In this document: positions 438-30,077 of the stretch, in pieces
Layout: every line of letters starts with the position of its first letter
Position numbering within the stretch: the stretch's first letter is position 1
Source of the DNA: Candidatus Acidiferrum sp.
GTDB lineage: Bacteria; Methylomirabilota; Methylomirabilia; Rokubacteriales; CSP1-6
Length of the DNA: 64,000 bases
Direction: 5' to 3'
Assembly: GCA_035317605.1 (NCBI GenBank)
Contig: DATHGT010000133.1
Coordinates: forward strand, 5,452 to 69,451
Translations under genes and position numbers: made by a program
Notes under the pieces: model-generated
Database searches by the model: none
What the model saw: the letters and a program-made list of their open reading frames with translations, nothing else
What the model was told of the DNA's origin: nothing

Positions 438-1253
438 TCAGCCGCGAGCACCCTCCATCGTGCACACGAACACGCCCCGTCCCTGGCGCTCGAAGCCTTC
501 GGCGGTCTTCGTACCGGGGGGCGGCGCCCACACGATGCCCTGGAACGTCACCTCGGCGAAGCCGGCGGCACGGACCATCCGCTCGACACAGGCCGGCCCG
601 TAGATCCACCAATTGGTGGTATCTCCGCAGTACGGGCCCTCGATGAACCAGGCGTACTCCGAGGCCGCGGGGTCGGTAAGCACCTCGGTCTCGAGGTACA
701 TGGTCCGCCGGGTGATCTTCGCCATCTTGGCGAGCATGTCGAGCGGGTTCTGCAGGTGATAGAGGAGTCCGGTGTTGAGCACGACGTCGAAGGGTGGCAG
801 GTCGGTGAGGGCGGCGTGTCCGTCCTGCAATCGAAACTCGACGTCGACGGCCAGGATCTCCCGAATCAACTGCGCCTGGCGGAAGTAGTGCGGCAACGTC
901 TCCAGGCCGAGCACCGATCGGGCCCCGCGCAGCGCGGCCACGAACGAGTAGAACCCGGCGTTGCAACCCACGTCGAGCACGGTCTGGCCCGTGAAGTCCC
1001 GCGGGAACCCGTGCTGGTCGAGCACGGCGAGGGCCCCATGGCACGGGTGGATGCCCGGCGTCTCCAGGCGCTGGCCGGCCGCGTCCTCGATGGTCAGACG
1101 ATGATAGTAGTCGACGCCGCGGCACTCCTCGATGCGCTGCGCGTACCGCCGAAACTCGTCGGGCGAGAGCGCACGGCCGAGCAGGAAACGGTCGGGCGCG
1201 AGGCTCACCGCCCTACTCGCCACCGCGGGCACGGCGACGGCGTCCGACCTCAT
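438..1253 (-). CDS. SAM-dependent methyltransferase, CmoB/DUF1698-like fold (paralog A)
   Basis: 271-aa ORF with motif TVLDVGCNAGFYSF and an NWWIYGP block. About 65% identical in protein to the plus-strand ORF 3466..4284. Its stop overlaps the wzt start region. Confidence 0.7.
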   Translation of the reverse strand: MRSDAVAVPAVASRAVSLAPDRFLLGRALSPDEFRRYAQRIEECRGVDYYHRLTIEDAAGQRLETPGIHPCHGALAVLDQHGFPRDFTGQTVLDVGCNAGFYSFVAALRGARSVLGLETLPHYFRQAQLIREILAVDVEFRLQDGHAALTDLPPFDVVLNTGLLYHLQNPLDMLAKMAKITRRTMYLETEVLTDPAASEYAWFIEGPYCGDTTNWWIYGPACVERMVRAAGFAEVTFQGIVWAPPPGTKTAEGFERQGRGVFVCTMEGARG

Positions 1254-2536
1254 GTGTGCAGGGTAATTTGCACGGGCAGCCAGACCTTGGTGTGGATCAT
1301 CCGGCCGTCGGTGGGAGGCAGGACTTCGAACACCAGGGCGTTGTCCACCCAGTCGAAGAAGGTCGCGGAGTAACGGTTGTACGCCAGTGCCGTTGTCACG
1401 CTGTACGTCCCGGGCGCGAGCGGAAGCCGATGTCGGTAATCTACCACAATCGTCTCACCGGCCCGGCGTGACGGGATGGGGGCGTGGTCCTCGTACGTGT
1501 TCGTCCCGATGATGTTGGTGCCGGTTTTGTCACGGACCAGGTAGCCCAGGATGCACTCGGCAACGTCCTGGTAGAACTCGACGTGGACCCGCAGGACGAT
1601 CTCCGCGTCGAAATCGGCCGCGGCCAGCGGCCGCAGGTTTCCGTTCAGCAGCTCGACGTTCCGGATCCGTGCGGCCCCCGTCCCATGGCGAAACAACCCG
1701 GCCCGCTGGTCGAAGGTTGCATCCGGACGAAAGACACTCGCGGTGGGGGCGAGGGCGGGCGCGGCCAGCGGCGCCGTCGCCGGCCCCGGGGACCGGGTCT
1801 CCAGGCTCGCGATATGGGCGTGGTAGAGGTTGGCGACGTCGGCTGGGTCGCCGAAGGCACGGACCTCGCCAGCGTGCATGAAGAGCACTTCCGAGCACAG
1901 CGCCTGCACCGTGCCGATGTCGTGGCTCACGAAGACGATGGTCTTGCCCTGCTCCTGCAGCTCCTTGATGCGACGGATGCAGCGGTGCTGGAAGATCGCG
2001 TCGCCGACGGCGAGGGCCTCGTCGACCAGCAGCACGGCGGGGTCGACGTGAATGGCGGCGGCGAAGGCCAGGCGAACGAACATGCCGCTCGAGTACGTTT
2101 TCACGGGCTGGTCGAAGTAGTGACCGATCTCGGCGAAGGCCTCGATGGCCGGCACCCGCGCCCGCGTCTCCTCGGAGCGGAACCCGAGGATCGTGCCCTG
2201 CATCATGACGTTCTCCCGACCGGTGAACTCGGGGTTGAAGCCCGCCCCCAGCTCGAGCAGCGAAGCCACCCGGCCCTGCACGGCGACCCGGCCGTGGGTC
2301 GGCTGCACGATGCCGGCGACGACTTGCAGCAGCGTGCTCTTGCCGGAGCCGTTCATGCCGATGATGCCCAGCGTGGACCCGCCCCGGATCCGAAAATTGA
2401 CGTTGTGCAGGGCCCAGAAGTCCCGGTGATAGCGACGACGTCCGCGCCAGAGGGCCTCGTAGAGACGATGCCGCGGATGCGCGTAGATCCGGTAGATCTT
2501 GGACACGGCCTCGACGTCGACCGCGAAGGCGGACAT
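1250..2536 (-). CDS. wzt: polysaccharide/O-antigen ABC transporter ATP-binding protein Wzt with C-terminal carbohydrate-binding (Wzt_C-like) domain
   Basis: In the 1250..3364 track ORF the real start is ATG 2536..2534 (MSAFAVDVEAVSKIYR...), in a TGATG overlap with the wzm stop. It has Walker A GMNGSGKST, signature YSSGM and Walker B LLVDEA. After the NBD there is a roughly 170-aa beta-rich C-terminal extension, as in Wzt proteins that recognise a capped glycan terminus. The 276 upstream codons of the track ORF are Arg/Gly-rich read-through. Confidence 0.85.
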   Translation of the reverse strand: MSAFAVDVEAVSKIYRIYAHPRHRLYEALWRGRRRYHRDFWALHNVNFRIRGGSTLGIIGMNGSGKSTLLQVVAGIVQPTHGRVAVQGRVASLLELGAGFNPEFTGRENVMMQGTILGFRSEETRARVPAIEAFAEIGHYFDQPVKTYSSGMFVRLAFAAAIHVDPAVLLVDEALAVGDAIFQHRCIRRIKELQEQGKTIVFVSHDIGTVQALCSEVLFMHAGEVRAFGDPADVANLYHAHIASLETRSPGPATAPLAAPALAPTASVFRPDATFDQRAGLFRHGTGAARIRNVELLNGNLRPLAAADFDAEIVLRVHVEFYQDVAECILGYLVRDKTGTNIIGTNTYEDHAPIPSRRAGETIVVDYRHRLPLAPGTYSVTTALAYNRYSATFFDWVDNALVFEVLPPTDGRMIHTKVWLPVQITLHT

Positions 2537-3300
2537 CAGAGCACGTCGACGAAGGCGTGCTTCGAACGACCGAAGACCCAGTGGCCCCCCACGAAGCTGG
2601 CCACGGCCACCGCGGCGAGGACGAGCAGCTGCGGACCCAGCGGGAATCGCCCTTCCAGGATCACATCGCGATAGGCCTGGACGACGTAGTACATCGGGTT
2701 CAGGGCGAGCACCCACGCGTAACGGGCCGGCATCAAGTCCGCGGGGTAGAAGATCGGGGTCAGGAACATCCAGAGCGTCATGGCCAGCCCCAGCACCTGT
2801 CCCACGTCGCGCAGGAAGACGTTCAGGCTGGCCAACACCCAGCCGACACCCATGGTGAACAGGAACTGCAGCACCATCACCAGGGGCAACAGAGCCAGGC
2901 TCCACCCGACGCCCCGCGAGAACAGTCCCACCCCCACGAGCATGATCGCGAGCCCCACCAGCTCCATCAGGAGCGCCGAGATCACCACGTACGCGGGCAG
3001 GATCTCCGAGGGAAAGACCACCTTCTTGATCAGTGGCGCCTGCTCCACGATGACCGAAGCGGAGCGGGTGATCCCCTCCGCGAAGGCCAGCCAGGGCAGC
3101 ATGCCGCAAAAGAGGTACAGGGCGAAGCCACCGGTCGTCCCGCCGCCGAACCGGATCTTGAGCACGTACGCGAAGACAAAGGTGTAGAGGAGCAGGAGCG
3201 CGAGCGGCTGGATGATCGCCCACGACAGGCCCATGACCGAGGTGACGTACCGTCCACGGATGTCTCGCCGCACGAACGCCTCGATCGTGGCGCGGTGCAA
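2536..3300 (-). CDS. wzm: ABC-2 type polysaccharide exporter permease Wzm
   Basis: 254 aa with 6 predicted TM segments. The N-terminus RDIRGRYVTSVMGLSWAIIQPL is typical of ABC-2 permeases. It lies immediately upstream of wzt and is translationally coupled to it. Confidence 0.85.
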   Translation of the reverse strand: MHRATIEAFVRRDIRGRYVTSVMGLSWAIIQPLALLLLYTFVFAYVLKIRFGGGTTGGFALYLFCGMLPWLAFAEGITRSASVIVEQAPLIKKVVFPSEILPAYVVISALLMELVGLAIMLVGVGLFSRGVGWSLALLPLVMVLQFLFTMGVGWVLASLNVFLRDVGQVLGLAMTLWMFLTPIFYPADLMPARYAWVLALNPMYYVVQAYRDVILEGRFPLGPQLLVLAAVAVASFVGGHWVFGRSKHAFVDVL

Positions 3301-3465: not shown

Positions 3466-4284
3466 GTGCGTCAACCGCGGCCGCTCGACGCCGCTTGCTC
3501 GCGTACCGGCCGCCCCTCGACGATGACGGTGACGCTGACGCCCGACGCCATGGTGCTCGACCGGCGGCTCACCGCGGACGACTACGCGCGTTACCGCAGG
3601 CAGATCGACGAGCGGAAATCCTGGGGGTACTACCAGCGGCTGGTCATCGCCGACGCGGGCGGCCAGCGCCTGGAGACCCCGGGCAGCCACGCGTGTCTGG
3701 GCTCCCTCGCCCTGCTGGATCGTCACGGGTTCCCGAAGGACCTCGCGGGTCAGACCGTGCTCGACATCGGCTGTAACGCCGGCTTCTACTCCTTCGTGGC
3801 CAAGCTGCGCGGAGCGAAGTCCGTCCTCGGTCTCGACTCGCAGCCCCACTACGTCGAGCAGGCGCTGCTGATGAGGGAGATCCTCGGTCTCGACGTGGAA
3901 TTCCGCGTGAGCGACGGCCACGATCTCGACGCGAACGCCGGGACGTTCGACGTGGTGATCAACACCGGCGTCATCTATCACCTGCAGAATCCCATGGACT
4001 TCCTGGTCCGCGTGGCCCAGGTCACCCGGCACCTCATGTATCTCGAGAGCGAAACCCTGCTCGACCCCAAGATGTCCGAGTACGCGTGGTTCATCGAGAA
4101 GGAATACGGCCAGGATGCCTCGAACTGGTGGATCTACGGCCCGCGCTGCGTGGAACGGATGGCGCGGGCCGCCGGGTTTCGGCAGGCCGTGTTCCAGGGC
4201 TTCGTGTGGACGCCGCCACCCGGCATGAAGACGCCGGAGGGATTCGCGCGCCAAGGACGCGGCGCCTTCCTCTGCCAGAAGTGA
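3466..4284 (+). CDS. SAM-dependent methyltransferase, CmoB/DUF1698-like fold (paralog B)
   Basis: The protein aligns along its full length with paralog A (TVLDIGCNAGFYSF, NWWIYGP, FQGFVWTPPPG). The alternative internal start MTVTLTPD at 3523 matches paralog A's N-terminus better. The TGA at 4282..4284 overlaps the GTG of the next gene. Confidence 0.7.
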   Translation: MRQPRPLDAACSRTGRPSTMTVTLTPDAMVLDRRLTADDYARYRRQIDERKSWGYYQRLVIADAGGQRLETPGSHACLGSLALLDRHGFPKDLAGQTVLDIGCNAGFYSFVAKLRGAKSVLGLDSQPHYVEQALLMREILGLDVEFRVSDGHDLDANAGTFDVVINTGVIYHLQNPMDFLVRVAQVTRHLMYLESETLLDPKMSEYAWFIEKEYGQDASNWWIYGPRCVERMARAAGFRQAVFQGFVWTPPPGMKTPEGFARQGRGAFLCQK

Positions 4285-6236
4285 GCGTGGAGTCCGCGTC
4301 CGCTCGCGCGGACGACCCGTCGTCGTTCTCCCGCGACCCCGTCACCCTCGCCGTCGGCCTCGCCGCCTTCGGTGTCCTGGCCGGCGCGCTCGGCCTCGCC
4401 GGCCTCTCGCTCCGACCGGTCGAGGCCGTCATGGTCGCGGTGCTCATCGCCTTCTTCGTGGTCAGCGTGCTGCTCTCGCCGGCCAACGGACTCGTGCTCC
4501 TCTATCTCGTGCCCCCGCTCTTCAACGGAGAGGACGGGCGTCCGTACTTCTGGCTGCTCGAGGTGCTCGTCTACCTGACCGTGGTGGTGGGCATCGTCAT
4601 CCGTCTGCGGCACCGGCAACGGCTCGTCGTCCCTCACGGGGTTCTGCTCGCGATGCTCTTCGCCTCGACCGTGGTTTCGTTTCCCCTCAACCTCAGGGAG
4701 GTGTGGCTCCAGCTCCAGGTTTCGCCCTGGAGCGAGGTGCTGCAAGGCGTCCGCCGGGCCGATCTCTGGGACAACCTCTTCTACGTGCGCACCGTCCTCA
4801 ACGTCGCCAGTGGCATCGGGCTGTTCGTGCTGGTCGTGAACGAGCGGTGGCCCCGCGAGCGGATCGCGCGACTGGCCGCGTCCATCGGCCTCGTCTACCT
4901 CGCCACGACCGCCCTCGGGCTGTGGTGTCACTGGCGGCCGGCGTCCCCCGCGGGCGCGTTCGTCACGCTCTGGCTCGGGGGGCCCGTGTTGGAGGGCTTT
5001 CAGAGCGTCGGTTTCAACATGTCGTATTTCGCGCAATACGCGCTCACCTATCTTCCGCTCATGGCCCTGCCCCTGGCGCTGACGGACGTGGCACCTCGCT
5101 GGGGGGCCGCCGTCGCCCTGCTGAGCTTGATCGTCAGCGGCTACACGATTCCCGCGGCCCACCAGAGGACGGCCTACCTCTTGTTCGTGATGGAGGTGCT
5201 GCTGTTGGTCGCGGCCGCCGTGAACTGGCGGCGGGGCCGAGGGGGACGGGCCGTCCTGGTCGTGGGGATGGGGGCCCTCGTCTTCACCGTCGTCGGGCTC
5301 GTCGTCTTCACCCCACTTGGTCACGGCATCGTCGTGCACGTCAAGCAGTTGTGGTGGAACGGCGACCCCTATCGGGTCAAGGCCCTGTCCGTCACGTGGC
5401 GCATGTTCCGCGACGAGCCACTGCTCGGCATCGGCAGCGGTCGATTCGCGGGCGTCTTCTCCCAGTACGACCAGGAGCCCAGGATGCAATGGGGCTCGTT
5501 GTCAGCTCACAACATCTACGCGCAGTTCCTCGCCGAGCAGGGCGGGCTCGGCTTGGTGAGCTTCCTCCTGCTGGTCGGGGCCGTCGTGATCCCGGCGGTG
5601 CGCAGCGTCCGCCGAGGTGGCCAGGGGCAGACGGCTCTGGTCTTCTTGCTGATATCGATGGCGGGGTGGCTGGCGTATGGGTGCCTTCAGTACACGTTCC
5701 TCATGCGATCGATGCAGGGGTATTTCTGGATCACGCTGGGGCTCCTGCTCATCTTGTCCGAGCCCTGGCGTGGTCGGCCGATGTCGAAGCGGTGGCTCGC
5801 CGCGATCGTGGTGGCGGTTCTGGTGCTGGGGTCGCTGCGCGTCGACGCCGCGCTCCGCCGTCCCGTTCCCGTCGGCTACGCCTGGGGGCTGTATCCCGGC
5901 GAGCCGGGCCAGACCCTCTGGACGCGCGGGGGCGCCGTGTTCAATTTTCCCGCGAATGGGACCCTGCTGACCCTCGCCTTCAGTTTCCCGATGCCGCAGG
6001 TGATCCACCGCCACCCGCAGCGCGCCACCGTGATCGTCGACGGCCGGCCGTTTCGTCAGATCGTCTTCGACTCGCCGTGGACCTGGGAGGTGGTCGACAT
6101 TCCCATCGACAAGCCGCGCGGCGCCCCGGTCCTCGTCCAGGTGAGGGTGGCGCGGACCGTCGTGCCCGCGGCGCTCGGGATCAACACCGACACGCGCCCG
6201 CTCGGCGTCCTCATGAAGCCTCCGTCCTGGCGCTGA
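4281..6236 (+). CDS. O-antigen ligase/polymerase-family (Wzy_C domain) polytopic membrane protein with about 130-aa C-terminal periplasmic extension
   Basis: The track ORF 4086..6236 overlaps the upstream gene. A GTG at 4281 (GTGA overlap) or 4287 precedes the first TM segment (PVTLAVGLAAFGVLAGALGLAGL). There are about 12 TM segments and the Wzy_C/O-antigen-ligase signature LLGIGSGRFAGVFSQYD...SAHNIYAQFLAEQGGLGL. The C-terminal soluble domain ends ...VQVRVARTVVPAALGINTDTRPLGV. Confidence 0.65.
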   Translation: MSVESASARADDPSSFSRDPVTLAVGLAAFGVLAGALGLAGLSLRPVEAVMVAVLIAFFVVSVLLSPANGLVLLYLVPPLFNGEDGRPYFWLLEVLVYLTVVVGIVIRLRHRQRLVVPHGVLLAMLFASTVVSFPLNLREVWLQLQVSPWSEVLQGVRRADLWDNLFYVRTVLNVASGIGLFVLVVNERWPRERIARLAASIGLVYLATTALGLWCHWRPASPAGAFVTLWLGGPVLEGFQSVGFNMSYFAQYALTYLPLMALPLALTDVAPRWGAAVALLSLIVSGYTIPAAHQRTAYLLFVMEVLLLVAAAVNWRRGRGGRAVLVVGMGALVFTVVGLVVFTPLGHGIVVHVKQLWWNGDPYRVKALSVTWRMFRDEPLLGIGSGRFAGVFSQYDQEPRMQWGSLSAHNIYAQFLAEQGGLGLVSFLLLVGAVVIPAVRSVRRGGQGQTALVFLLISMAGWLAYGCLQYTFLMRSMQGYFWITLGLLLILSEPWRGRPMSKRWLAAIVVAVLVLGSLRVDAALRRPVPVGYAWGLYPGEPGQTLWTRGGAVFNFPANGTLLTLAFSFPMPQVIHRHPQRATVIVDGRPFRQIVFDSPWTWEVVDIPIDKPRGAPVLVQVRVARTVVPAALGINTDTRPLGVLMKPPSWR

Positions 6237-11518: not shown

Positions 11519-11734
11519 CCGACGGGGTGAAGCATCGCGGCGGCTCGCGGGTTCCGTCACTCACCTCGACGTGACTCGCCCGTTCGAGACCGTCCCCTTC
11601 CCGCGCGATCGTCGCCGACGTCCTGACGACCCTCGTCCACATGGCCGGGCTCGTCACGCGAATCATGCCGGAGAGCATGTCTGGCCCCGGCCGTGCAGCC
11701 AGGAGCGCGCTGCCATGAGAGGGAGGACACGCTG

Positions 11735-13846
11735 ATGCACGCCTCGCGGACCTTCGTGTTGATCGCGGCCGTCTGCCTGTTGGCTCTGGCCCTCGGCTCC
11801 GAGCGCGGGGGGATTCGTGGTTCGGCCCGCGCGGACGATCTGTTCGTGTCGCCCGACGTGATGAACCAGCTGGCGACCTCCGGGCGCGCGCGGGTCATCG
11901 TGGAGGTCCGGCTGCCGAACGCATTCGTTCCCGAGGGACAGCTGCCCACGCCGGCGCATGTGGCACTCCAGCGAGCCAATCTGGCGTCAGCGCAATCTCG
12001 GGTGCTGTCTCGGCTCCAGGGCCGGAGCCACGCGGTCCTGCGTCAATTCTCTTCCGCTCCCTACCTCGCACTGGAGGTCGCCGCCGACGCCATGCAAGAG
12101 CTCGCGGGGGCGTCCTCTGACGTCCAGCGGGTGGTGGAAGATGCGCTGTACGAGCCGATGCTGCCGCAGAGCGCGCCGCTGGTCGGAGCCACCGAGGCGT
12201 GGGGGTTACAATTCGACGGGACAGGGGTCATGGTCGCCATTCTCGACACCGGCGTGGACCGAAGCCATCCCTTCTTCGCGGGAAAGATCCTCGAAGAAGC
12301 GTGCTTCTCCAGCAGCATCTTGGGATCGGCCTCCGTCTGTCCGAACGGTCAGCCGCAGCAGTTCGGGGCAGGCGCCGGCGTCCCTTGCCCGTCGACCATT
12401 CCCGGATGCTGGCATGGCACGCACGTGGCGGGCATCGCCGCGGGCAACGGCGCTAGCGCCGGGGTGGCGTATTCCGGCATCGCCAAGGGCGCCCAGATCA
12501 TGGCGGTCCAGGTCTTTTCCCGAATGACGATCGTCTCCACCCAGTGCCCGGCGCCCCCCTGCGCCTTGGCCTGGAACTCCGACATCATGGCGGGTCTCGA
12601 CCGCGTCTACAGCCTGCGCAACCAGCGCAACTTCGCGTCGGTCAACCTGAGCCTCGGCGGAAGCCTCTTCAGCGGCAACTGCGACTCCGATCCGACGAAG
12701 TCGTTCATCGACAATCTCCGCTCGGTCGGGATCGCCACCGTCATCGCCTCCGGCAACGACGGCTCGACCTCGAAGATGAGCTCGCCGGCGTGCATCTCCT
12801 CGGCGGTGAGCGTGGGTTCGACGGAGAAGGCCGACGTCGTGTCGTCGTTCTCGAACGTGGCCCCGGTTCTTTCCCTCTTCGCTCCCGGGGGGATCATCCA
12901 GTCGTCCTATCCCGGGGGCCAGTGGATCTTCGCCAGCGGAACCTCCATGGCGACCCCGCACGTCACCGGCGCCTTCGCGATCCTGAAACACGCGGTGCCC
13001 AGCGCCTCGGTGAGCACGATGTTGAGCGCGCTCCAGCAAACCGGCGTGTCGATCACGGACATCCGGCCCGGAGGGACCGTCACCAAGCCCCGGATTCAGG
13101 TCGCCAAAGCCCTGTCGTCCCTGGCCCCCGCGCCCCCGCCTCCGTCGCCGATCCCGAACGTGCAACTCGGCGTCTCCGGGGACATTCCCATCCCCGCCGA
13201 CTACGACGGCGACGGCAAGGTCGATCCCGCCGTCTATCGGCCGTCGACCGGACAGTGGTTCGTCCTGGGCAGCGCCACCGGCCTGCAGACCCGTATCTTC
13301 GGTGCGCCGGCCTCGAGCGGCCTCGGCGATACCGCGGTGCGCGCGGATTTCGATGGCGACGGCAAGGCCGACATGGCGATCTATCGTCAGGCGACGGGGG
13401 AGTGGTTGGTCTTCGGCAGCCGTAGCGGATTCCTCACCCTGCTGTTCGGGTCGCCGGCCTCTCTCGGCCTCGGCGACATTCCGGTCCCCGCCGACTACGA
13501 CGGCGACGGCATCGCCGATCTGGCGGTCTATCGCCAGGCCACCGGCGAGTGGTTCATCTTCGGTAGCCGCACGGGATTTCGCACGCTGCTCTTCGGCTCA
13601 CCGGCCTCTCTCGGCCTCGGCGACGTCCCGGTCCCCCGCGACTACGACGGCGACGGTAAGGCGGACCTGGCGGTCCGCCGGAACAGCACCGGCACCTGGT
13701 TCATCTTCCAATCGAGCCTCGGTCAGGTCCAGCAGGTCTGGGGGACACCCACGGACATCCCGACGCCCGGCGACTTCGACGGCAACAAGAAGAGCAACAT
13801 CGCCGTCTGGCGGCCGAGCGATGGAACCTGGCTGATTTCTCCGTGA
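11735..13846 (+). CDS. secreted subtilisin-like serine peptidase (S8) with C-terminal FG-GAP/VCBS-like repeat domain
   Basis: The start is ATG 11735, 8 nt after GGGAGG (track ORF starts at 11693). It has a signal peptide MHASRTFVLIAAVCLLALALG. The catalytic triad blocks are VAILDTGVD, HGTHVAGIAAG and GTSMATPHVTGAFAIL. Five C-terminal repeats of about 45-49 aa each carry DYDGDGKxDxAVYR...G.W...FG.PAS.GLGD (a Ca-binding DxDGDG plus FG/GAP signature). Confidence 0.85.
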   Translation: MHASRTFVLIAAVCLLALALGSERGGIRGSARADDLFVSPDVMNQLATSGRARVIVEVRLPNAFVPEGQLPTPAHVALQRANLASAQSRVLSRLQGRSHAVLRQFSSAPYLALEVAADAMQELAGASSDVQRVVEDALYEPMLPQSAPLVGATEAWGLQFDGTGVMVAILDTGVDRSHPFFAGKILEEACFSSSILGSASVCPNGQPQQFGAGAGVPCPSTIPGCWHGTHVAGIAAGNGASAGVAYSGIAKGAQIMAVQVFSRMTIVSTQCPAPPCALAWNSDIMAGLDRVYSLRNQRNFASVNLSLGGSLFSGNCDSDPTKSFIDNLRSVGIATVIASGNDGSTSKMSSPACISSAVSVGSTEKADVVSSFSNVAPVLSLFAPGGIIQSSYPGGQWIFASGTSMATPHVTGAFAILKHAVPSASVSTMLSALQQTGVSITDIRPGGTVTKPRIQVAKALSSLAPAPPPPSPIPNVQLGVSGDIPIPADYDGDGKVDPAVYRPSTGQWFVLGSATGLQTRIFGAPASSGLGDTAVRADFDGDGKADMAIYRQATGEWLVFGSRSGFLTLLFGSPASLGLGDIPVPADYDGDGIADLAVYRQATGEWFIFGSRTGFRTLLFGSPASLGLGDVPVPRDYDGDGKADLAVRRNSTGTWFIFQSSLGQVQQVWGTPTDIPTPGDFDGNKKSNIAVWRPSDGTWLISP

Positions 13847-13889
13847 GGTCTCGCCTCGCCCGAGGCCTCGCGACGAGCGAACCAAGCGC

Positions 13890-16800
13890 GTGAGCCACGA
13901 CAGTCCTTCCGACGTCTGCATCGTCATCCCGGTGTTCAACAAGCGGGCCTTCACGCTCCAATGCCTCGACCGGATCTGGCGGAACACGTCGACCATCGTC
14001 CCCTACGAAGTCGTCGTGGTGGACAACGGCTCGAGTGACGGCACCCGGGAGCACTTCGAGGGCGGCGTCGTCTCGCCGCGACTGCGGTACCTCCGGAACG
14101 ACACCAACCTCGGCTTCGCCAAGGGCAACAACCTCGGAGCGCGACTGGCCCGGGGGAAGTATCTGCTGTTCCTCAACAACGACACGCTGGTCCAGCCCAA
14201 ATGGCTCGAAGACATGGTCGGCCTGGCCAGCGGCGATCCCGCGATCGGCATGGTCGGCATCAAGCAGCTGTTCCCCTACACCAGCACCATCCATCACACC
14301 GGCATCGTCTTCACCGCGGGCGCCCGTCCCCTGCACCTCTATCCGCACGCGGACGCGCGGTGGCCTCACGTCAACAAGCAGCGCGAGTATCAGGCCGTCA
14401 ACGGCGCGTGCTTCTTGATCCGGCGCGAACTGTTCGAGGCGTGCGGCGGCTTCGACGAGGGCTACGTCAACGGATACGAGGACATGGACCTCTGCCTGGC
14501 CGTGCGGCAGCGCGGCTTCAAGATCGTCTGCTGCACGTCGTCCTTCATCTATCACTACGGCCAGATCTCCGAGGGGCGGACCAGCGCCGACGCCCGCAAC
14601 GCGGCGCGCTTCGTCGCCAAGTGGGGAGCCCACGTCCGGGCCGACGACGGCGACTACGCTCACGCCGACCTGGAGGACGTTCAGCGGGTCGAGGCGGCCC
14701 GCCGCCTCGTGCCCGCGCCCCGGCCGGAGGGCGGGGCCGCGTTCCACTTCGTCGACGACCTCTCGCGGGGCAGCGCGCTGTCCTGGGCGGTGGCCGATCT
14801 CGTCCTCGCCCTCAAGCGCCTCGGGGCGCCGGTCCACATCGCGAACACGCCCCTGACGAAGACCCTCGACGAGTCGACCCGCCGGGAGCTGCAGCCCCTG
14901 ATGCGCGGCGATCGTGACCCGGACGGAGTGCACATCAAGTGGTCGCATTACTGGCCGGAGCATCTCGCCCTCGATCTGACCGGCCGGATCAACCTGGAGC
15001 TGTTCGTCATCAACTACACGTTCGCCCGGCCTGGCGCCGACCCGTGGGACTACTGGCTCCAGTGCCTGGCGCAGAATCACTATCACAAGCTGCCGCTGAC
15101 TCGGTTCTGCCAGGACGTGCTCCTCGAGGTCGGGGTGCCGGCGGCGGAGAGCCACCTCTTGCACCTCGGCTATTCCCGCGAAGTCCACGACGTGGGGCCG
15201 CCCCCGCGCCGCCCGGGGGGATTCCGCTTTCTCACCGTCACCAACTCGCACGACCTCACGCGCTACGGGACCCGACTGCTCCTGGAGGCCTACTGGGACG
15301 CCTTCGCGCGCGGGGACGACACGGTCCTGGTCGTCAAGGACTACGGGGCCACGTCGGCGGACACCACGCTCCGCGACCTCATGCGCCGGGCGAACGGCCG
15401 GGCCCGCGTCGAGTACGTCGATGCGTTCACGAGCAAGCGGGACCTGATCAGCCTCTATCGTTCCTGCGACGCCTTCGTCTCGGCCCACCGCAGCGAAGGC
15501 TTCGGCATGAAGATCCTCGACGCGCTCGCCTGTGGTCTGCCCGTGATCACCCCGCGCTTCGGCGGCCCCGCGGACTTTTGCACGCCCGAGACCAGCTTCG
15601 AGGTGGCGTTCACCCTGGAGCCGATGACCGACTGCCTCGACACCCGCTCGCTCCGGATCACCAATCAACCGCTCTGGGGTGCGCCCGACCGCAACGACCT
15701 CGTGAGGCAGCTGCGGTTCGTGGCCGGCCACCCCGCGGCCGCCGCCGCGGTGGGCGAGGCCGGACGTCGCTCGGTCGTGGATCGCTTCACCTGGGACGCC
15801 TCCGCGCGGCGGCTGGTCGCCATCGTGGACGAGATCCGCGAGGGGCAGACGCGGCGCACCACGCGACGGGCCGACCGGGCCCCGGCCCCCGCGGCCGAGG
15901 CGTCGCCCTACTGGCTCGGCTGCCGGTTGAGCGTGGTCATTCCCACCTATAACCGCAAGGACACGCTGCTCCAGTGTCTGGCCGCGCTGGAGCGGCAGTC
16001 GATCCTGCCCTCGGAGTTCGAGGTCGTGGTCGTGGACGACGGCTCGACGGACGGCACCGAGGCGGCGCTGGCCGCGCGTCAGTTCACGTTTCCCCTCGAA
16101 TACCACCGGCAGTCGAATCAGGGGCCGGGCGCCGCCCGCAACCTCGGCGTCACCCTCGCCCGCGGCGAGCTGGTGCTCTTCATCGGAGACGACATCATCG
16201 CCCACGAGCGGCTGCTGGAGCACCATCTCCTGACCCACGCGCAACATCCCGAGGCGAGCGCGTCCGTGCTCGGACACATCGACTGGCCGCCGTGGCTGAC
16301 GCCCACGCCGGTGATGGACTACGTGTGCGGGGAGGGCGGTCTTCAGTTCGCGTACCAGTTCATCCCGGATCTTCCGTCGCTCGACTACCGGTTTTTGTAC
16401 ACGAGCAACATCTCTCTGAAGCGCCGGTTTCTCCTGGAGGCGTTCGAGGCGGGCGTCCGCTTCGACCCGTGCTTCCGGTACGCGGCGTTCGAGGATTCCG
16501 AGCTGGCCCTCCGGCTCGAGTCGCGGGGACTCACCATCCACTACTCCAGCGACGCGCTCGCCTACCACGATCACTGGATGGACCTCGAAAGCTTCGCGCG
16601 CCGCGAATACAGCGCCGGGCAGATGGCGGTGGTCTTCTACCGCAAGCATCCGAAGATGGACGAGGTCCTGACCGTGCGCTGGATCGGAGACTGGGTCGAG
16701 GCCGTCGAGAAGCTCCGCGCGCAGCCGGCCTTGCTGGACAAGGTCAAGACGCTGGACGCGCACACCGACCAGTTCCTCGTCTCGCTGGAGCGGTCCCTGG

Positions 16801-17303
16801 AGGAGCTCCTGACCCTCGAAGCATCGCTCGCGTCGACCATCGGCCGCGAACGACCGCGGACCGTGGTCCGCTCGGCGCTGCACAGCGTCCTCGCCGTGAT
16901 TTTCGACGTGCATCGCACGCGGGGCAAGGTCCAGGAGTGGTACGCGATGGTCGAGGATCGCGACAAGGTCGAGAGCGCGAAGGCCCTGCTCGGCTGCCTG
17001 CGCAAGCTCGAATTCCTCGGCACCGACGGAACCGCGCTGGGACGCCTGGTTCCGGGTCTTTCCTGGGGACGTCAGGAGGTCCGGGACCTGAAGGCCCAGG
17101 CCGCCGCGCTGCAGAGCGAGCTGGGCACGCCCGTCCCCTCCGGGGCTCGCGCCCTCGTGCGCCGCGTGCTCCTGCGCGGCGGCGTCTTCAGGGCGCTACG
17201 GAACGCCGACCGCCGCCTCCAGGCCGCCCTGCACCGGCGCCAGCGGCTCGGCTGGCTCGCGGCCTATCACCGGATCCGCGGCCGGCTCAAGCGCCTCTTG
17301 TAG
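13890..17303 (+). CDS. 1137-aa three-domain glycosyltransferase (GT2 - GT4/GT-B - GT2) with C-terminal helical region
   Basis: GTG start at 13890. Domain 1 is CIVIPVFNKR...VVVVDNGSSDGT...DTLV (GT2, with DXD-like DNDT). The middle domain ...VEYVDAFTSKRDLISLYRSCDAFVSAHRSEGFGMKILDALACGLPVITP carries the GT4 EX7E-type C-terminal motif. Domain 3 is LSVVIPTYNRKDTL...VVVVDDGSTDGT...FIGDDII (GT2). The last roughly 250 aa are helical/coiled-coil-like. Confidence 0.8.
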   Translation: MSHDSPSDVCIVIPVFNKRAFTLQCLDRIWRNTSTIVPYEVVVVDNGSSDGTREHFEGGVVSPRLRYLRNDTNLGFAKGNNLGARLARGKYLLFLNNDTLVQPKWLEDMVGLASGDPAIGMVGIKQLFPYTSTIHHTGIVFTAGARPLHLYPHADARWPHVNKQREYQAVNGACFLIRRELFEACGGFDEGYVNGYEDMDLCLAVRQRGFKIVCCTSSFIYHYGQISEGRTSADARNAARFVAKWGAHVRADDGDYAHADLEDVQRVEAARRLVPAPRPEGGAAFHFVDDLSRGSALSWAVADLVLALKRLGAPVHIANTPLTKTLDESTRRELQPLMRGDRDPDGVHIKWSHYWPEHLALDLTGRINLELFVINYTFARPGADPWDYWLQCLAQNHYHKLPLTRFCQDVLLEVGVPAAESHLLHLGYSREVHDVGPPPRRPGGFRFLTVTNSHDLTRYGTRLLLEAYWDAFARGDDTVLVVKDYGATSADTTLRDLMRRANGRARVEYVDAFTSKRDLISLYRSCDAFVSAHRSEGFGMKILDALACGLPVITPRFGGPADFCTPETSFEVAFTLEPMTDCLDTRSLRITNQPLWGAPDRNDLVRQLRFVAGHPAAAAAVGEAGRRSVVDRFTWDASARRLVAIVDEIREGQTRRTTRRADRAPAPAAEASPYWLGCRLSVVIPTYNRKDTLLQCLAALERQSILPSEFEVVVVDDGSTDGTEAALAARQFTFPLEYHRQSNQGPGAARNLGVTLARGELVLFIGDDIIAHERLLEHHLLTHAQHPEASASVLGHIDWPPWLTPTPVMDYVCGEGGLQFAYQFIPDLPSLDYRFLYTSNISLKRRFLLEAFEAGVRFDPCFRYAAFEDSELALRLESRGLTIHYSSDALAYHDHWMDLESFARREYSAGQMAVVFYRKHPKMDEVLTVRWIGDWVEAVEKLRAQPALLDKVKTLDAHTDQFLVSLERSLEELLTLEASLASTIGRERPRTVVRSALHSVLAVIFDVHRTRGKVQEWYAMVEDRDKVESAKALLGCLRKLEFLGTDGTALGRLVPGLSWGRQEVRDLKAQAAALQSELGTPVPSGARALVRRVLLRGGVFRALRNADRRLQAALHRRQRLGWLAAYHRIRGRLKRLL

Positions 17304-17320: not shown

Positions 17321-19396
17321 TCAGCGAGCGATCTGGGGGAGCGGGATGTCGACCGTCGTCCCCCACGTGGTCGTTTGCGTCTGTCCGTCGACCGACCGGT
17401 TCACGAGCCACTCGCTGGTCGTGCTCCGAAAGACCGCGAGGTCGGTCTTGCCGTCACCGTCGAAGTCGCCCGGCATCGGGACGTCGCCGAGGCGCGCGCT
17501 CGCCGGCGCTCCGAAGGCGCGTGTCTGGAAGCCGCTCAGGCTTCCGAAGATGTACCACTCACCCGTCGCCTGCCGGTAGATGGCCAGGTCCGTCTTGCCG
17601 TCGCCGTCGTAATCGGCCGGCACCGGGATGTCGCCGAAGTCGTTGGGGGCGGGAGAGCCGAAGACGACGGTGCGGAAGCCCGAGGCCGTCCCATAGATCA
17701 ACCACTCGCCCGTGGCGCGGCGATAGATGGCGAGGTCCGTCTTGCCGTCGCCGTCGTAGTCGGCCGGCACCGGGATGTCGTCGAGCCCGGCCGCGCCCGG
17801 CGCGCCGAACACCACGGTGCGGAAGCCGGAGGCCGTCCCATAGATCAACCACTCGCCCGTCGCCCGGCGATAGATGGCGAGATCCGCCTTGCCGTCGCCA
17901 TCGTAGTCGGCCGGCACCGGGATGTCGTCGAGCCCACTTGACGCGGGAGCGCCGAAGACGAGGGTGCGGAAGCCGAAATCCGTCCCGTAGATCAACCACT
18001 CGCCCGTCGCTTTACGATAGATGCCCAGGTCCGTCCTGCCGTCGCCGTCGTAGTCCGCGGGCACCGGTGTGTCACCGAGCCCGCTGGACGCAGGAGAGCC
18101 GAAGACGAGGCTGTGGAAGCCGGCGGCGCTGGTGAAGGCGAACCACTCACCCGTGCTTGGACGGTACACCGTGTAGTCCGTCTTGCCGTCCCCGTCGAAA
18201 TCTCCAAACACGCGCCTGACCACGGTGACCGCGAGCGTTGCCGTCGCCGTCCGCGCCGCGGCATCGGTGATGGTGAGGGTCAGCGTCCGCGCTCCCATCT
18301 CGACCGTCGCCGTGTTCCAGGCGTAGGTCGCGGCCGCCCCGTTCACCGTCTGCGTCGAGACCACCGTCCCGTCCACCGCGAGCTTGAAGGTCGATGACCC
18401 GCTGGCCCCCGCCGATATCATGCCGACGGTCGTGACCCCGCCCACGGTCGCGCCGCCCGTGGGCGCCGTGAACGACGCGGTCAACGGCGCCAAGGGTGGC
18501 GGCGGGTTGTTGACGGTGACCGGCAGCGCCGCCGTGGCCGTCTGGCCGGCCATGGTCACCGTCGTGGTCAGCGTCCGCGGGCCGTTCCCCACCTTGGTCG
18601 TATCCCAGGTGTACGAGAGCGTGGTGCCCTGCTCGCTCTGCGTGATCAGCACCGTGCCGTCGACCGGCAGCGCGAAGGTCTTGGCCTGTCCTCCCGCGGC
18701 CGTGGTCGACAGCGCCACGGTCGGTGTGCCGCTGACCGTGGCGCCGCCGGCGGGAGACGTGAACGTCACCGTGAAGGCCACCGGCGGCGGCGTGACGACG
18801 TTCGAGACCGTGACCGTCTGGGTCGCCGTGGCGGTGCGGTTCTGGGAATCCGTCACCGTGGCCGCCAGCGTGTGCGACCCGTTGGCCACCGTGGCCGTGT
18901 TCCAGGTGAAGCTTCCGTTCGTTCCCGAGTAGATCGTCGAGCCATCCACCTTGATCGTGTACGTATATCCGCTGCCGCCGCCCGCGGTCAGCGAGACCGC
19001 CGCGGTGCCGCTCACCGTCGTCCCGCTCGTCGGATTCGTGAACGACAGGATGAGCGGAGTGGCCGTGCTGGAGGTTGCGCACACCTCGTCGGAGTACGCC
19101 GAGACGCCGCCGGTGTCGTGGGCGAGCACGCGATAGCAGTACCTCGTCCCCTCGCCGACGGAGGTGTCGACGTACTGCGTGACGCCTGCCGGGATGTCGG
19201 CGAGGGCGGCGAAGCCCGAAGCCGACGCCAGTCGGCGCTCGAGCAGGGTCGCCGCGGCGCCGTTCGAGTTGTCGACCCACGATGCCGTGAGCTGGACGCC
19301 CGCGGCTTCGGCGGCTCCGAGACTGACGGCCGTGATCATCAGGGCGAGGAGCAGCAGGTGAACGGTGACCGAAGCGAATCGAGCCTTCGCGACCAT
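17321..19396 (-). CDS. secreted repeat protein: signal peptide, fibronectin-III/Ig-like domains, and six C-terminal FG-GAP/VCBS-like repeats
   Basis: 691 aa. ATG at 19396 has GGGAG 7 nt upstream on the minus strand. The signal peptide is MVAKARFASVTVHLLLLALMITAVSLGAAEA. There are three roughly 90-aa Ig-like repeats (T.SFT.P.GGATVSG...TATA.L.VTV), then six 49-aa repeats DYDGDGKTDLAIYRRATGEWLIYG...FGAP...GLDDIPVP. Confidence 0.7.
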   Translation of the reverse strand: MVAKARFASVTVHLLLLALMITAVSLGAAEAAGVQLTASWVDNSNGAAATLLERRLASASGFAALADIPAGVTQYVDTSVGEGTRYCYRVLAHDTGGVSAYSDEVCATSSTATPLILSFTNPTSGTTVSGTAAVSLTAGGGSGYTYTIKVDGSTIYSGTNGSFTWNTATVANGSHTLAATVTDSQNRTATATQTVTVSNVVTPPPVAFTVTFTSPAGGATVSGTPTVALSTTAAGGQAKTFALPVDGTVLITQSEQGTTLSYTWDTTKVGNGPRTLTTTVTMAGQTATAALPVTVNNPPPPLAPLTASFTAPTGGATVGGVTTVGMISAGASGSSTFKLAVDGTVVSTQTVNGAAATYAWNTATVEMGARTLTLTITDAAARTATATLAVTVVRRVFGDFDGDGKTDYTVYRPSTGEWFAFTSAAGFHSLVFGSPASSGLGDTPVPADYDGDGRTDLGIYRKATGEWLIYGTDFGFRTLVFGAPASSGLDDIPVPADYDGDGKADLAIYRRATGEWLIYGTASGFRTVVFGAPGAAGLDDIPVPADYDGDGKTDLAIYRRATGEWLIYGTASGFRTVVFGSPAPNDFGDIPVPADYDGDGKTDLAIYRQATGEWYIFGSLSGFQTRAFGAPASARLGDVPMPGDFDGDGKTDLAVFRSTTSEWLVNRSVDGQTQTTTWGTTVDIPLPQIAR
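17395..18280. repeat. tandem 147-bp coding DNA repeats (about 6 units) encoding the FG-GAP-like blades
   Basis: Near-identical units, for example ccgtcccatagatcaaccactcgcccgt...ggcgagGtccg starting at 17686, 17833 and 17980 (period 147 nt). Adjacent units are roughly 85-90% identical at DNA level. Other frames show matching periodic ORFs (17521..18135). Confidence 0.7.
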
Positions 19397-19828: not shown

Positions 19829-21616
19829 GTGGAAGTCACCGATGGCCCCATGAGAGTCGCGGCGCTCGCCGGGCCATATGTGACCGCGCTGCTCGTCGCC
19901 GTCGTGTTGACCCTCGTGTGCGAGCGCGTGGCCCGTCGCTTCCGGTTGATCGCGCACCCGCGCGAGGATCGATGGCACCGTGAGAGCGTCCCGCTGCTCG
20001 GCGGCCTGGCCATCATGCTGACGGTCGCCGTGGTGGGCGCCGGATGGGGGGCCCGACTTGGTCGGTTTGCGCCGCTGCTGGTGCTGTCCTTCGCCATGGG
20101 CGTCGTGGGACTCGTCGACGACGTCAGGACGCTGCGCCCCCAGACCAAGCTGGCCGCACAGATCGTCGGCGCGGCCGTCCTGATCCAGTTCGGAGCCCTC
20201 CTCCCGCTCACCCAGTTCGCGATCGTCAATCTGCTCCTCACCCTGTTCTGGATGGTGGCGATCACCAATGCCTTCAACCTCCTCGACAACATGGACGGCC
20301 TGGCGGCCGGCGTGGCCGTCCTCACCGCGGTGTTCCGGCTGTGGCTCTTTCTCATCGACGGCGACGGCGACGGCGCCTGGATGATGGCGGCGCTCGTCGG
20401 CGCGGCGGGCGGGTTCCTCATCCGCAACTATCCGCCGGCCAAGATCTTCATGGGCGACGCGGGAAGCCTCTTCCTGGGCTTCTTTCTGGGCGGCGTCTCG
20501 CTGGTCAGTAGCTACGCCCAAACTCGCGGGGTCATCGCCGTGCTCGTCTTCCCGATCCTGCTCGTCCTCGTGCCCATTCTCGATACCTCATTCGTCACCG
20601 TGACGCGCCTGCTCAGCGGGCGATCGGTCGCCCAGGGCGGCCGGGATCATACCTCCCACCGGCTCATGGCCCTGGGGATCAGCGAGCGGAAGGCGCTCAG
20701 CCTGCTTCTGGGCGTTTCGACGGTCTCGGGGGTCCTGGCGATCCTGTCGTATCAGCAGGGGTTCCGATACTCGATCATCCTGCTCGCCTTGCTCATCATC
20801 TGGCTCGCCCTTCTGGGCGTACATCTCAGTCGCGCGCACGTCGTCACGGCTCAGGCCGGCGGGGAGGCGGCGGCCACCTTCCGTTTCGTGAACGACTTCC
20901 CGTACAAGCGTCACGTCGTTACCCTGGGCATCGATGCGATGTTGATCGTGGTGGCCTACTATGCGTCGTACCTGCTCCGCTTCGAAGGGACGTTCGAAGC
21001 CGAACGAGCGAACTTCATGCGCAGCGTCGGGCCGATCCTCGGCCTGCAGATCCTGGCTCTTGCCGTCTTCGGCAGCTATCGCGGAATCTGGCGTTACACG
21101 AGCCTTTCCGACCTTGTCCGTCTGTGCCGCGCGGCGACGGCCGGCGTGGCCGCCAGTGTCCTGTACCTGGTGTTCACCACGCGGTTCGAGACGTTTTCGA
21201 GAGCGGTGTTCGTGCTCGACTGGGCCCTCTTGATCCTCCTTCTCGCCGGAAGCCGGGTGGCGTTCCGTCTCCTCGGTGACTGGCTGCGGCCGCGATCGAG
21301 AACGTCCCGGCGGGCATTGATCTACGGCGCCGGCGACGGTGGCGCCCTCACCCTGCGTGAGCTGCTGAACAATGCCGGTCTCGCGCGGCGCCCGGTGGGC
21401 TTCCTCGACGACGATCGGCACAAGCGAGGCCGGCGGATCTACGGGCTCCCCATCCTGGGTGGGCTCGACCTCGCCGAGGAGATCTTCACGGCCCAGCAGG
21501 TCGAAGAGGTGATCGTCGCCTCACAGAAGATCCCGCCCGAACGGCTCGAGCAGCTGAGCGCCCTGTGCACGGCCCGCGGCGTCCTGGTGACGCGGGCGTC
21601 GCTGTGGATCCAGTGA
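19829..21616 (+). CDS. WecA/MraY-family (Glycos_transf_4) polyprenyl-phosphate HexNAc-1-phosphate transferase fused to C-terminal membrane segment plus CoA_binding-type Rossmann domain
   Basis: 595 aa. Residues 1-330 carry the 11-TM MraY/WecA core with NAFNLLDNMDGLAAG and FMGDAGSLFLGF motifs. Four more TM helices follow, then ALIYGAGDGGALTLRELL...PVGFLDDDRHKRGRRIYGLPILGGLD...VEEVIVA. This resembles the nucleotide/CoA-binding domain found at the N-terminus of WbaP/PglF/WbpM-type proteins. Confidence 0.75.
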   Translation: MEVTDGPMRVAALAGPYVTALLVAVVLTLVCERVARRFRLIAHPREDRWHRESVPLLGGLAIMLTVAVVGAGWGARLGRFAPLLVLSFAMGVVGLVDDVRTLRPQTKLAAQIVGAAVLIQFGALLPLTQFAIVNLLLTLFWMVAITNAFNLLDNMDGLAAGVAVLTAVFRLWLFLIDGDGDGAWMMAALVGAAGGFLIRNYPPAKIFMGDAGSLFLGFFLGGVSLVSSYAQTRGVIAVLVFPILLVLVPILDTSFVTVTRLLSGRSVAQGGRDHTSHRLMALGISERKALSLLLGVSTVSGVLAILSYQQGFRYSIILLALLIIWLALLGVHLSRAHVVTAQAGGEAAATFRFVNDFPYKRHVVTLGIDAMLIVVAYYASYLLRFEGTFEAERANFMRSVGPILGLQILALAVFGSYRGIWRYTSLSDLVRLCRAATAGVAASVLYLVFTTRFETFSRAVFVLDWALLILLLAGSRVAFRLLGDWLRPRSRTSRRALIYGAGDGGALTLRELLNNAGLARRPVGFLDDDRHKRGRRIYGLPILGGLDLAEEIFTAQQVEEVIVASQKIPPERLEQLSALCTARGVLVTRASLWIQ

Positions 21617-30074: not shown

Positions 30075-30077
30075 GGC

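Follow-up and report, generated by a model that had tools for sequence, protein, structure and literature searches.

Nearly all that is known of how bacterial surface glycans are assembled by the ATP-binding cassette (ABC) transporter-dependent pathway comes from a small set of systems in enterobacteria, pseudomonads, and Gram-positive bacteria with S-layers. The pathway is defined by multi-module elongating enzymes, methyl caps, and carbohydrate-binding modules (CBMs) on the Wzt ATPase (PMC11231755, PMC7820976), and its characterized modules can add two or three residues each (PMC11231755). In Geobacillus stearothermophilus, WsaE, which joins a methyltransferase to two GT2 glycosyltransferase (GT) modules, and WsaF, a GT4 enzyme, produce a trisaccharide rhamnan repeat with three linkages and a 2-O-methyl cap; Wzm/Wzt serves as the exporter of the rhamnan and the Wzy_C protein WsaB as its transfer enzyme (PMC2943079). 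In the characterized chain-terminating systems of Klebsiella and Escherichia coli, a coiled-coil protein that bears the terminator is both scaffold and ruler. Here we describe a gene for a GT2-GT4-GT2 glycosyltransferase that lies in the same glycan cluster as wzm and wzt on a 64,000-nucleotide stretch (the window) of contig DATHGT010000133.1, from assembly GCA_035317605.1 of Candidatus Acidiferrum sp. With moderate confidence, we propose that this three-module enzyme elongates the chain of a methyl-capped, ABC-transporter-dependent surface glycan.

A single gene encodes three glycosyltransferase modules

The preliminary description of this DNA reported a single open reading frame (ORF) of 1137 amino acids (aa), and exactly this ORF is present (Table 1). 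Spurious long ORFs are abundant in this window of 68% guanine-plus-cytosine (GC) content. The GC content at the three codon positions of the ORF (0.69/0.46/0.91) matches that of the window's real genes, and its Pfam matches are strong; it is a real gene. An antisense ORF of 1070 aa (13701-16913, minus strand) was rejected, having no Pfam match and the wrong codon bias. Nor is the architecture a chance fusion, since more than 120 full-length homologues (~1110 to 1160 aa, 52 to 95% identity), all from metagenomes or metagenome-assembled genomes (MAGs), share it. Promoter and terminator scans around the gene yielded no more than in shuffled sequence, and a tRNA scan found none and therefore gave no evidence of an integration site.

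Pfam scans, run on the whole protein and on each segment, placed all three modules above curated cut-offs, at aa 7 to 228 (GT2), aa 417 to 643 (the C-terminal half of GT4), and aa 680 to 905 (the second GT2), in the order that the preliminary description had given. Modules 1 and 3 match GT2 profiles and have the GT-A fold, whereas module 2 has two Rossmann-like halves, as in the GT-B fold, together with a Glycos_transf_1 match; the N-terminal half of this fold is without a Pfam match. Modules 1 and 3 share 29% identity and are therefore not a recent duplication. The enzyme did not reach the NCBIfam equivalog cut-offs for EpsD (NF041875; 255.8 bits against 370) or MftF (TIGR03965; 194.3 against 280). 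No transmembrane segment is predicted in the enzyme (top 19-residue hydropathy, 1.31), which is most likely a soluble, peripherally membrane-associated cytoplasmic protein. A match to PF20706, a GT4 family of anti-phage "conflict systems," suggested a role in defence; this reading was discarded, as there was no PADLOC match and the context is one of glycan biosynthesis.

Putative catalytic positions of all three modules were checked in 77 close homologues, and each one checked is kept in 73 to 77 of them. The GT2 positions given in Table 1 are kept in 76 or 77; those of module 1 are all invariant (77/77), and within module 3, D717, D768, D869, and E871 are invariant (77/77) and D767 is present in 76/77. 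The positions counted as conserved in module 2 are D455, R458, K483, E536, K541, and D544; of these, D455, R458, E536, K541, and D544 are invariant. Among 20 distant relatives at 32 to 39% identity (15 three-module, 5 two-module), the catalytic residues of the GT4 module and of module 3 are kept in all 20, and those of module 1 in 13 of the 15 that possess it. The metal site of module 1 is NND rather than the canonical DXD. In module 2, E536-x7-D544 aligns with EGLGIVYLEA of PimB', and the Asp that replaces the second Glu is invariant across the family. Where the aligned PimB' has a lysine, the enzyme has Y459, giving Arg-Tyr here against Arg-Lys in PimB'; this Arg-Lys (R458-Y459 in the enzyme) is generally regarded as the phosphate-binding pair of GT4 enzymes. 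Judged by these alignments, none of the three modules appears to lack its catalytic motif.

An enzyme family of uncultured bacteria

The named close homologues come from Vicinamibacterales, Acidobacteriota, or Methylomirabilota, and a scan of one genome per species recovered 54 loci, all from MAGs. The distant three-module relatives occur in Kiritimatiellia, Victivallales, Verrucomicrobiota, Bdellovibrionales, Candidatus Kuenenia, and Rokubacteria. A two-module form, corresponding to aa ~278 to 923 (the GT4 and second GT2 modules), is found in Planctomycetota and some Verrucomicrobiota. No relative has a cultured host or an informative name, the named ones being MAG entries labelled just "glycosyltransferase," and a search seeded with the Kiritimatiellia protein likewise returned neither an isolate nor an informative name. 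In the literature on the GT2-GT4-GT2 architecture and on Acidobacteria with Wzm/Wzt, we found no description of this enzyme family. With sources that are all metagenomes or MAGs and a span of at least six phyla, the family is sizeable, uncharacterized, and so far restricted to uncultured bacteria.

The Kiritimatiellia-seeded search also turned up rare larger fusions of 1324 to 1849 aa (P0254, P0257, P0294, and P0301), in which the three-module core is joined either to a polysaccharide pyruvyl transferase domain or to TPR repeats together with RgpF (rhamnan synthesis) and WbsX domains. In one Vicinamibacterales genome the enzyme gene is present twice (L009 and L051), both times on the 58.6-kb contig JBMDXQ010000100.1.

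Linkage to the Wzm/Wzt exporter

The preliminary description placed the enzyme next to the Wzm/Wzt system. Taken literally this is untrue, because 10.6 kb and eight genes lie between the enzyme gene and the transporter genes upstream; what holds is that they belong to the same glycan cluster and that the linkage is kept in relatives. The genes between include those for a methyltransferase, a Wzy_C-domain protein, an AlgX-like SGNH protein, an MBOAT protein, a 414-aa methyltransferase (9155-10399), a PhyH-like dioxygenase, and a secreted subtilase with an FG-GAP domain, and the enzyme is the sole glycosyltransferase in the 19 kb nearest the transporter. The wzt start overlaps the wzm stop codon (TGATG), and the best PDB match of Wzt is the O-antigen transporter ATPase Wzt of Aquifex aeolicus (E 6.5e-77).

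We counted neighbors in relatives by searching 62 related loci (43 three-module, 19 two-module) in tblastn with proteins of the window as queries; many loci are truncated, so the counts are lower bounds. Wzm or Wzt lies within 10 kb of the enzyme gene in 27/43 three-module and 2/19 two-module loci, the carbohydrate-binding part of Wzt in 16/43 and 0/19, and an FG-GAP protein like those of the window in 26/43 (15 within 3 kb) and 0/19. The enzyme gene is operonic with wzm/wzt in loci L022, L026, L043, and L063. In L063 (Vicinamibacterales), wzt overlaps the enzyme gene by 8 bp; rmlA/C/D-like genes and methyltransferases are also part of the cluster, and its initiating transferase is the WecA-CoA_binding_3 fusion found in the window. 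In L022 (Kiritimatiellia), wzm, wzt(CBM), and the enzyme gene form an operon with overlapping stops; a beta-helix/CBM6-35/FG-GAP protein and then an FG-GAP/GDSL protein are encoded downstream, housekeeping genes flank the set, and between them the enzyme is the sole glycosyltransferase. The gene order in L043 is wzm-wzt-GT-FkbM methyltransferase-GDSL, and L026 combines a wzm-wzt-GT operon with a two-module glycosyltransferase and more FG-GAP proteins. The genetic link of the enzyme to Wzm/Wzt is genuine.

In 8 of 9 gene-called loci, as well as in L043 and L026, methyltransferases are encoded no more than 10 kb from the enzyme gene, and FkbM-type or other S-adenosylmethionine (SAM)-dependent methyltransferases adjoin it in several relatives; none was found near the enzyme in L022. 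Genes of the dTDP-rhamnose or GDP-mannose-dehydratase type are present in several relatives, with none clearly assignable in the window. Across phyla, the FG-GAP proteins of the relatives (L002-L006, L022, L026, and others) frequently carry beta-helix, CBM6/35, BACON, subtilase, or GDSL domains in the same polypeptide. One relative's locus, L007 (1-648, minus strand), encodes a 1182-aa protein that combines Wzt_C with methyltransferase and GT domains, the ABC ATPase being a protein of its own.

The C-terminal region

A helical C-terminus of roughly 250 aa had been described, with a suggested role as membrane tether or molecular ruler. Its helicity is borne out: aa 899 to 1136 are predicted to be helical throughout, short breaks excepted, and the last 247 residues have no significant Pfam family match. 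Its length has to be revised, because the profiles of the single GT2 enzymes EpsD and MftF align to aa 680 to 931 and so reduce the extra region to ~205 aa. Modelled alone, aa 891 to 1137 form a compact all-helical domain (predicted local distance difference test score [pLDDT], 87; predicted template modelling score [pTM], 0.77) whose longest helix has 39 aa, against 35 aa in the full-length model. Residues 900 to 1040 are well conserved, with R905, P921, G1012, and W1017 kept across phyla, and this proximal part probably belongs to module 3 itself or helps to pack the modules together. The domain has no relative of solved structure. An exhaustive search of 1.84 billion representative proteins with the domain profile gave 82 matches; these are mostly fragments, shorter than the enzyme by several hundred residues, and include one full-length family member, so the domain appears limited to this enzyme family; a word-indexed homologue search returned 13 matches, mostly short proteins on short contigs.

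The distal part varies in sequence but is consistently basic. We scanned charge and hydrophobic moment across the 77 homologues: the net charge of the last 45 residues is +12 here, with a mean of +8.4 over the 77 aligned sequences and values of +4 to +11 in 15 distant relatives. With a conserved basic tail and no transmembrane segment, electrostatic tethering to the membrane by the C-terminus is plausible. A by-eye likeness to the basic tail of the 414-aa methyltransferase suggested a shared docking motif; a hidden Markov model of the tail matched the enzyme alone among 388 ORFs of the window, and the motif was rejected.

Other genes of the cluster

The features of the cluster are collected in Table 1. 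The two candidate capping methyltransferases are paralogues of 271 and 272 aa that bracket wzm-wzt, and neither has a coiled coil or a kinase domain. The Wzy_C protein (~650 to 716 aa; 650 aa in the gene call of the 95%-identical locus L005) has an extra C-terminal region of ~150 aa and no sequence match in the PDB. Typical O-antigen ligases are much shorter. It may act as a ligase or, like WsaB, as a protein O-oligosaccharyltransferase. An MBOAT and AlgX-like SGNH pair (6268-9118, minus strand) represents polysaccharide O-acylation machinery; it is absent from L005, which is otherwise syntenic and whose enzyme is 95% identical, and thus looks recently inserted. GDSL/SGNH genes recur in the distant loci L022 and L043.

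Table 1. Positions of the three-module glycosyltransferase, its parts, and neighboring genes in the window.
Feature	Position	Strand	Evidence and remarks
SAM-dependent methyltransferase, candidate capping enzyme	438..1253	-	Flanks wzt; Pfam Methyltransf_9, _31, _23; TIGR04290-like, below cut-off
wzt: ABC-transporter ATPase with C-terminal CBM, 428 aa	1250..2536	-	Pfam ABC_tran and Wzt_C, E 2e-31
wzm: ABC-2 permease	2536..3300	-	Pfam ABC2_membrane, E 4.7e-23
Paralogous SAM-dependent methyltransferase, candidate capping enzyme	3466..4284	+	Divergent from wzm; Pfam; TIGR04290-like, below cut-off
Wzy_C-domain membrane protein, candidate acceptor-transfer enzyme	4086..6236	+	Pfam Wzy_C, E 4.7e-14; start uncertain
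Secreted subtilase with FG-GAP domain	11693..13846	+	44 bp upstream of the enzyme, co-directional; Pfam; conserved neighbor
Three-module glycosyltransferase gene	13890..17303	+	1137 aa, stop codon included, GTG start; ORF list and translation
Module 1, GT2, GT-A fold	13908..14669	+	aa 7-260; PF00535, PF13641; GT-A structural matches; D45, N96-N97-D98 (DXD-like), E197-D198
Module 2, GT4, GT-B fold	14739..15875	+	aa 284-662; D455, R458, E536-x7-D544 (EX7D variant of EX7E), K541
Module 3, GT2, GT-A fold	15924..16682	+	aa 679-931; PF00535, PF13641; D717, D767-D768, D869, E871
Family-specific all-helical domain	16683..17129	+	aa 932-1080; high confidence to ~aa 1045
Arginine-rich C-terminal tail	17142..17300	+	aa 1085-1137; two predicted helices, low to moderate confidence
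Secreted Big_7 and FG-GAP protein	17321..19396	-	Convergent, 17 bp from the enzyme stop; Pfam; conserved neighbor
WecA/MraY-type polyprenyl-phosphate sugar-phosphate transferase with CoA_binding_3, candidate initiator	19829..21616	+	PF00953, PF13727; wecA-like NCBIfam, below cut-off

The candidate initiating transferase is an unusual fusion of a WecA/MraY-type polytopic domain (aa 20 to 340) to a noncatalytic transmembrane/CoA_binding_3 region of the kind typical of a WbaP-type N-terminus (TIGR03025 positions 2 to 218); the same 594-aa fusion occurs with the three-module enzyme in the Vicinamibacterales cluster (L063, 19514-21298). The FG-GAP regions of the two proteins that flank the enzyme are 58 to 64% identical and are the sole FG-GAP sequences in the window.

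Two further gene sets follow. The one at 21671-33958 (minus strand) holds two GT4 enzymes, one GT2 enzyme, two AsnB-like amidotransferases, a heparinase II/III-like protein (30078-32066), and a 661-aa TIGR04326-like "surface carbohydrate biosynthesis" protein, to which a 653-aa protein in L063 is similar. At about 39.4 to 57 kb (minus strand) lies a nonulosonic-acid (pseudaminic- or legionaminic-type) pathway, with a PseB-like dehydratase (55945-56949), a PseC-like aminotransferase (54791-56218), NeuB (52762-54003), a GNAT protein (52229-52762), and two CTP_transf_3 cytidylyltransferases, one of them fused to an aldo/keto reductase (50589-52232).

Proposed mechanism and alternatives

In the mechanism that we propose, the WecA-type transferase (19829-21616) would prime an undecaprenyl-diphosphate carrier, and the three active sites of the enzyme would extend the non-reducing end of the lipid-linked chain in turn at the cytoplasmic face. 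With two inverting GT-A sites (GT2) and one retaining GT-B site (GT4), no fewer than three linkage types would be expected in each repeat, two of them with the donor configuration inverted and one with it retained. The preliminary description had suggested that such an enzyme could make a trisaccharide repeat processively; the number of modules need not equal the number of sugars, as characterized modules of the pathway can add two or three residues each (PMC11231755). The arginine-rich tail, carried on the family-specific helical domain, would hold the enzyme against the anionic inner side of the membrane, while the SAM-dependent methyltransferases encoded beside wzm/wzt would cap the chain. 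The CBM of Wzt would then recognize the cap, Wzm/Wzt would export the glycan, and the Wzy_C protein would transfer it to its final acceptor, either lipid A-core or a protein; the MBOAT/AlgX pair may O-acylate it. The architecture and folds of the enzyme, its conserved catalytic residues, its lack of transmembrane segments, its basic tail, and its gene linkage are direct results of the analysis. Polymerization and the steps of priming, membrane binding, methyl capping, export, and transfer are what we infer from homology and gene context, as are the order of action and the identity of the sugars, for which the relatives alone hint at a deoxyhexose such as rhamnose.

Several observations weigh against this proposal. 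The enzyme gene is 10.6 kb from wzm/wzt in the window, and 16/43 three-module relatives have no Wzm/Wzt within 10 kb, many of these loci being truncated. Other single-module glycosyltransferase genes are present at 21.6 to 28.3 kb, and any of them could encode the polymerase or an adaptor enzyme. No nucleotide-sugar pathway clearly feeding the enzyme could be identified in the window; nor was an extended coiled-coil protein seen there, which the literature calls a marker of the terminator strategy. Given the EX7D motif and the tyrosine at the position of the PimB' lysine, GT4 activity of module 2 is an assumption, and the membrane binding of the tail is predicted from its charge. Finally, all sources name the family members only "glycosyltransferase," and their function is a predicted one.

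Three modules in one protein need not imply a polymer. The three-module glycosyltransferase A111/114R of chlorovirus PBCV-1 builds a fixed glycan (PMC7826918), and further GT2, GT4, and two-module enzymes that could polymerize are encoded in the window and in several relatives. The enzyme could thus be a non-polymerizing assembly line in which each module adds its own defined sugar a single time, the product being a short oligosaccharide, a core, or an adaptor, with any polymerization left to other enzymes. We consider this unlikely, although worth keeping in mind, because in L022 the enzyme is the only glycosyltransferase beside wzm-wzt(CBM) and because Wzt proteins with a CBM have been described for capped polymers (PMC11231755, PMC9445017). 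A rather less probable variant divides the labor within the protein, such that the GT4 and second GT2 modules form a disaccharide polymerase and the N-terminal GT2 adds a terminating or priming sugar; WbbB of Klebsiella O12 likewise has three GT modules, of which one is a terminator (PMC11231755). The GT4-GT2 pair does occur as a free-standing enzyme in Planctomycetota and Verrucomicrobiota, for which Wzm/Wzt linkage is rare (2/19, against 27/43 for the three-module form). However, the ~20 residues between modules 1 and 2 would not hold a terminator and a polymerase apart, and methyltransferases, the usual capping enzymes, are present. The deviation of the GT4 motif from EX7E, the presence of Y459, and the N-terminal GT-B half without a Pfam match would all suit an effectively bifunctional enzyme in which one module, most likely the GT4, is a noncatalytic scaffold, a reading that we find quite improbable.

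Two other explanations seem to us very improbable. The enzyme might directly glycosylate the flanking FG-GAP proteins in the cytoplasm, with no lipid-linked polymer: these proteins are secreted, and their like are encoded within 10 kb in 26/43 three-module relatives, but the Wzm/Wzt linkage, the Wzy_C transferase, and the WecA-type initiator point to a lipid-linked route, and no likeness to known cytoplasmic protein glycosyltransferases stood out. The C-terminal region might instead be a coiled-coil ruler that sets glycan chain length. It is all-helical, and a crude, home-made heptad score, calibrated on GCN4 and tropomyosin, picked out a sole heptad-like segment of ~35 aa (aa 947 to 985); its value of 9.9, however, is that of the 95th percentile of shuffled sequences. 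In characterized rulers the coiled coil is extended and bears a terminator at its far end (PMC11231755, PMC3482155), whereas here the longest helices, of 35 to 39 aa, fold back into a compact domain. Neither the predicted structures nor the heptad score revealed in the enzyme an extended continuous coiled coil such as marks the ruler or terminator proteins WbdD, WbbB, ORF6-O7, and ORF7-O4, and no Pfam or NCBIfam match to a terminating domain (methyltransferase, kinase, or 3-deoxy-D-manno-octulosonic acid [Kdo] transferase) was found in it. Because neither an extended coiled coil nor a distal terminating enzyme is present, we reject the ruler; of the two roles that the preliminary description had offered for the C-terminus, the tether is the one that remains plausible.

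Alongside chain elongation by the three-module enzyme, the conserved neighbors invite a broader speculation, which we would not call probable but which deserves attention. The enzyme may be the core of an undescribed cross-phylum cassette composed of wzm, wzt(CBM), one three-module synthase, a methyltransferase, secreted FG-GAP/beta-helix/CBM proteins, and often an SGNH/GDSL acyl-esterase. Here one polypeptide would make the entire capped glycan, the helical domain and basic tail would replace the enterobacterial coiled-coil scaffold, and the FG-GAP proteins would be dedicated extracytoplasmic acceptors or processors. If this is true, uncultured Acidobacteriota, Kiritimatiellota, Verrucomicrobiota, and Rokubacteria would possess a surface glycoconjugate system of a new kind, and the recurrence of FG-GAP, beta-helix, and CBM proteins is to us the most interesting loose end. 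If a minimal wzm-wzt-GT cassette suffices, it would provide a compact, portable system for relating module order to repeat unit and for studying chain length without a ruler, as well as a first handle on the surface glycans of abundant uncultured soil Acidobacteriota.

Comparison with known systems

The enzyme shares two features with the multi-module elongating class (WbdA, WbbM, WbbB, ORF6-O7, and WsaE): its single polypeptide, predicted to be soluble or peripheral, contains three GT modules, where the class has two or more, and its gene is linked to wzm/wzt. The preliminary description had likened it to WbdA and WbbM; its three conserved modules and its linkage to Wzm/Wzt(CBM) favor a place among the polymerizing enzymes of the pathway, while the likeness to those two proteins is one of functional analogy and not of family membership. 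WbdA (E. coli O9a/Klebsiella O3) and the Pseudomonas syringae TET operon share with it a multi-module, peripheral, cytoplasmic elongating enzyme coupled to wzm, wzt with a CBM, and an O-methyltransferase (PMC11231755, PMC7820976). WbdA is set apart by its module content, having two tandem GT4 modules and no GT2, whereas here one GT4 lies between two GT2 modules. WbdA is also recruited to the membrane by the coiled-coil protein WbdD; the present enzyme has three modules of mixed fold and a basic tail of its own, and no WbdD-like protein was seen among its neighbors. WbdD-type terminators do have a C-terminal amphipathic or basic membrane-associating helix (PMC3482155, PMC11231755), which the tail may resemble, but they carry kinase and methyltransferase domains and an extended coiled coil, all of which the enzyme lacks.

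Other multi-module proteins differ in similar ways. WbbB of Klebsiella pneumoniae O12, which acts in an ABC-transporter-dependent pathway, also unites three GT modules in a single polypeptide (PMC11231755), but it is built as GT99, coiled coil, GT102, and GT103, with an N-terminal Kdo-transferring terminator and a long coiled-coil ruler before the polymerase; the present enzyme is GT2-GT4-GT2, has linkers of ~20 aa, and has no long coiled coil. ORF6 of Klebsiella O7 resembles it in its multiple GT modules, two GT2 modules elongating a rhamnose-containing O-polysaccharide with a methyl-containing cap (PMC11231755), and differs in its N-terminal methyltransferase-kinase and coiled coil and its lack of a GT4, the third activity being a separate protein. 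WbbM of Klebsiella O2a, compared by description, is a multi-module polymerase of the same pathway (PMC11231755), with two modules in a system that has no terminal cap or Wzt CBM. The PBCV-1 protein A111/114R also holds three glycosyltransferase domains (PMC7826918), but it is viral, builds a fixed N-glycan core rather than a polymer, and has no transporter linkage.

The functionally closest system, by analogy, appears to be WsaE plus WsaF of G. stearothermophilus NRS 2004/3a. Both systems comprise two GT2 modules and one GT4 module, with a three-linkage repeat (proposed here), a methyl cap (a candidate here), and Wzm/Wzt export and a large Wzy_C-domain transfer enzyme (both predicted here), and the wzm-wzt-GT gene overlap is seen in relatives of the present enzyme. 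In contrast to WsaE/WsaF, a single chain here carries all the GT modules, as GT2-GT4-GT2, and no methyltransferase is part of it; the host is of high GC content, its relatives are in Gram-negative-type phyla, and the window has no rml genes. In WsaF, a proline-rich PHPSYPPLE replaces the first Glu of EX7E (PMC2943079), whereas the enzyme has HRSEGFGMKILDA, in which this Glu is present; WsaF was absent from the enzyme's PDB matches. Given the different order of its fused modules, the separate methyltransferase, and a GT4 without the WsaF signature, the enzyme falls outside the WsaE/WsaF families. Its basic logic will be expected, and not surprising, to specialists. The kind of enzyme is known, and what is new is the architecture, in which three putative catalytic modules of two folds are joined in one chain that has a helical domain and a basic tail of its own.

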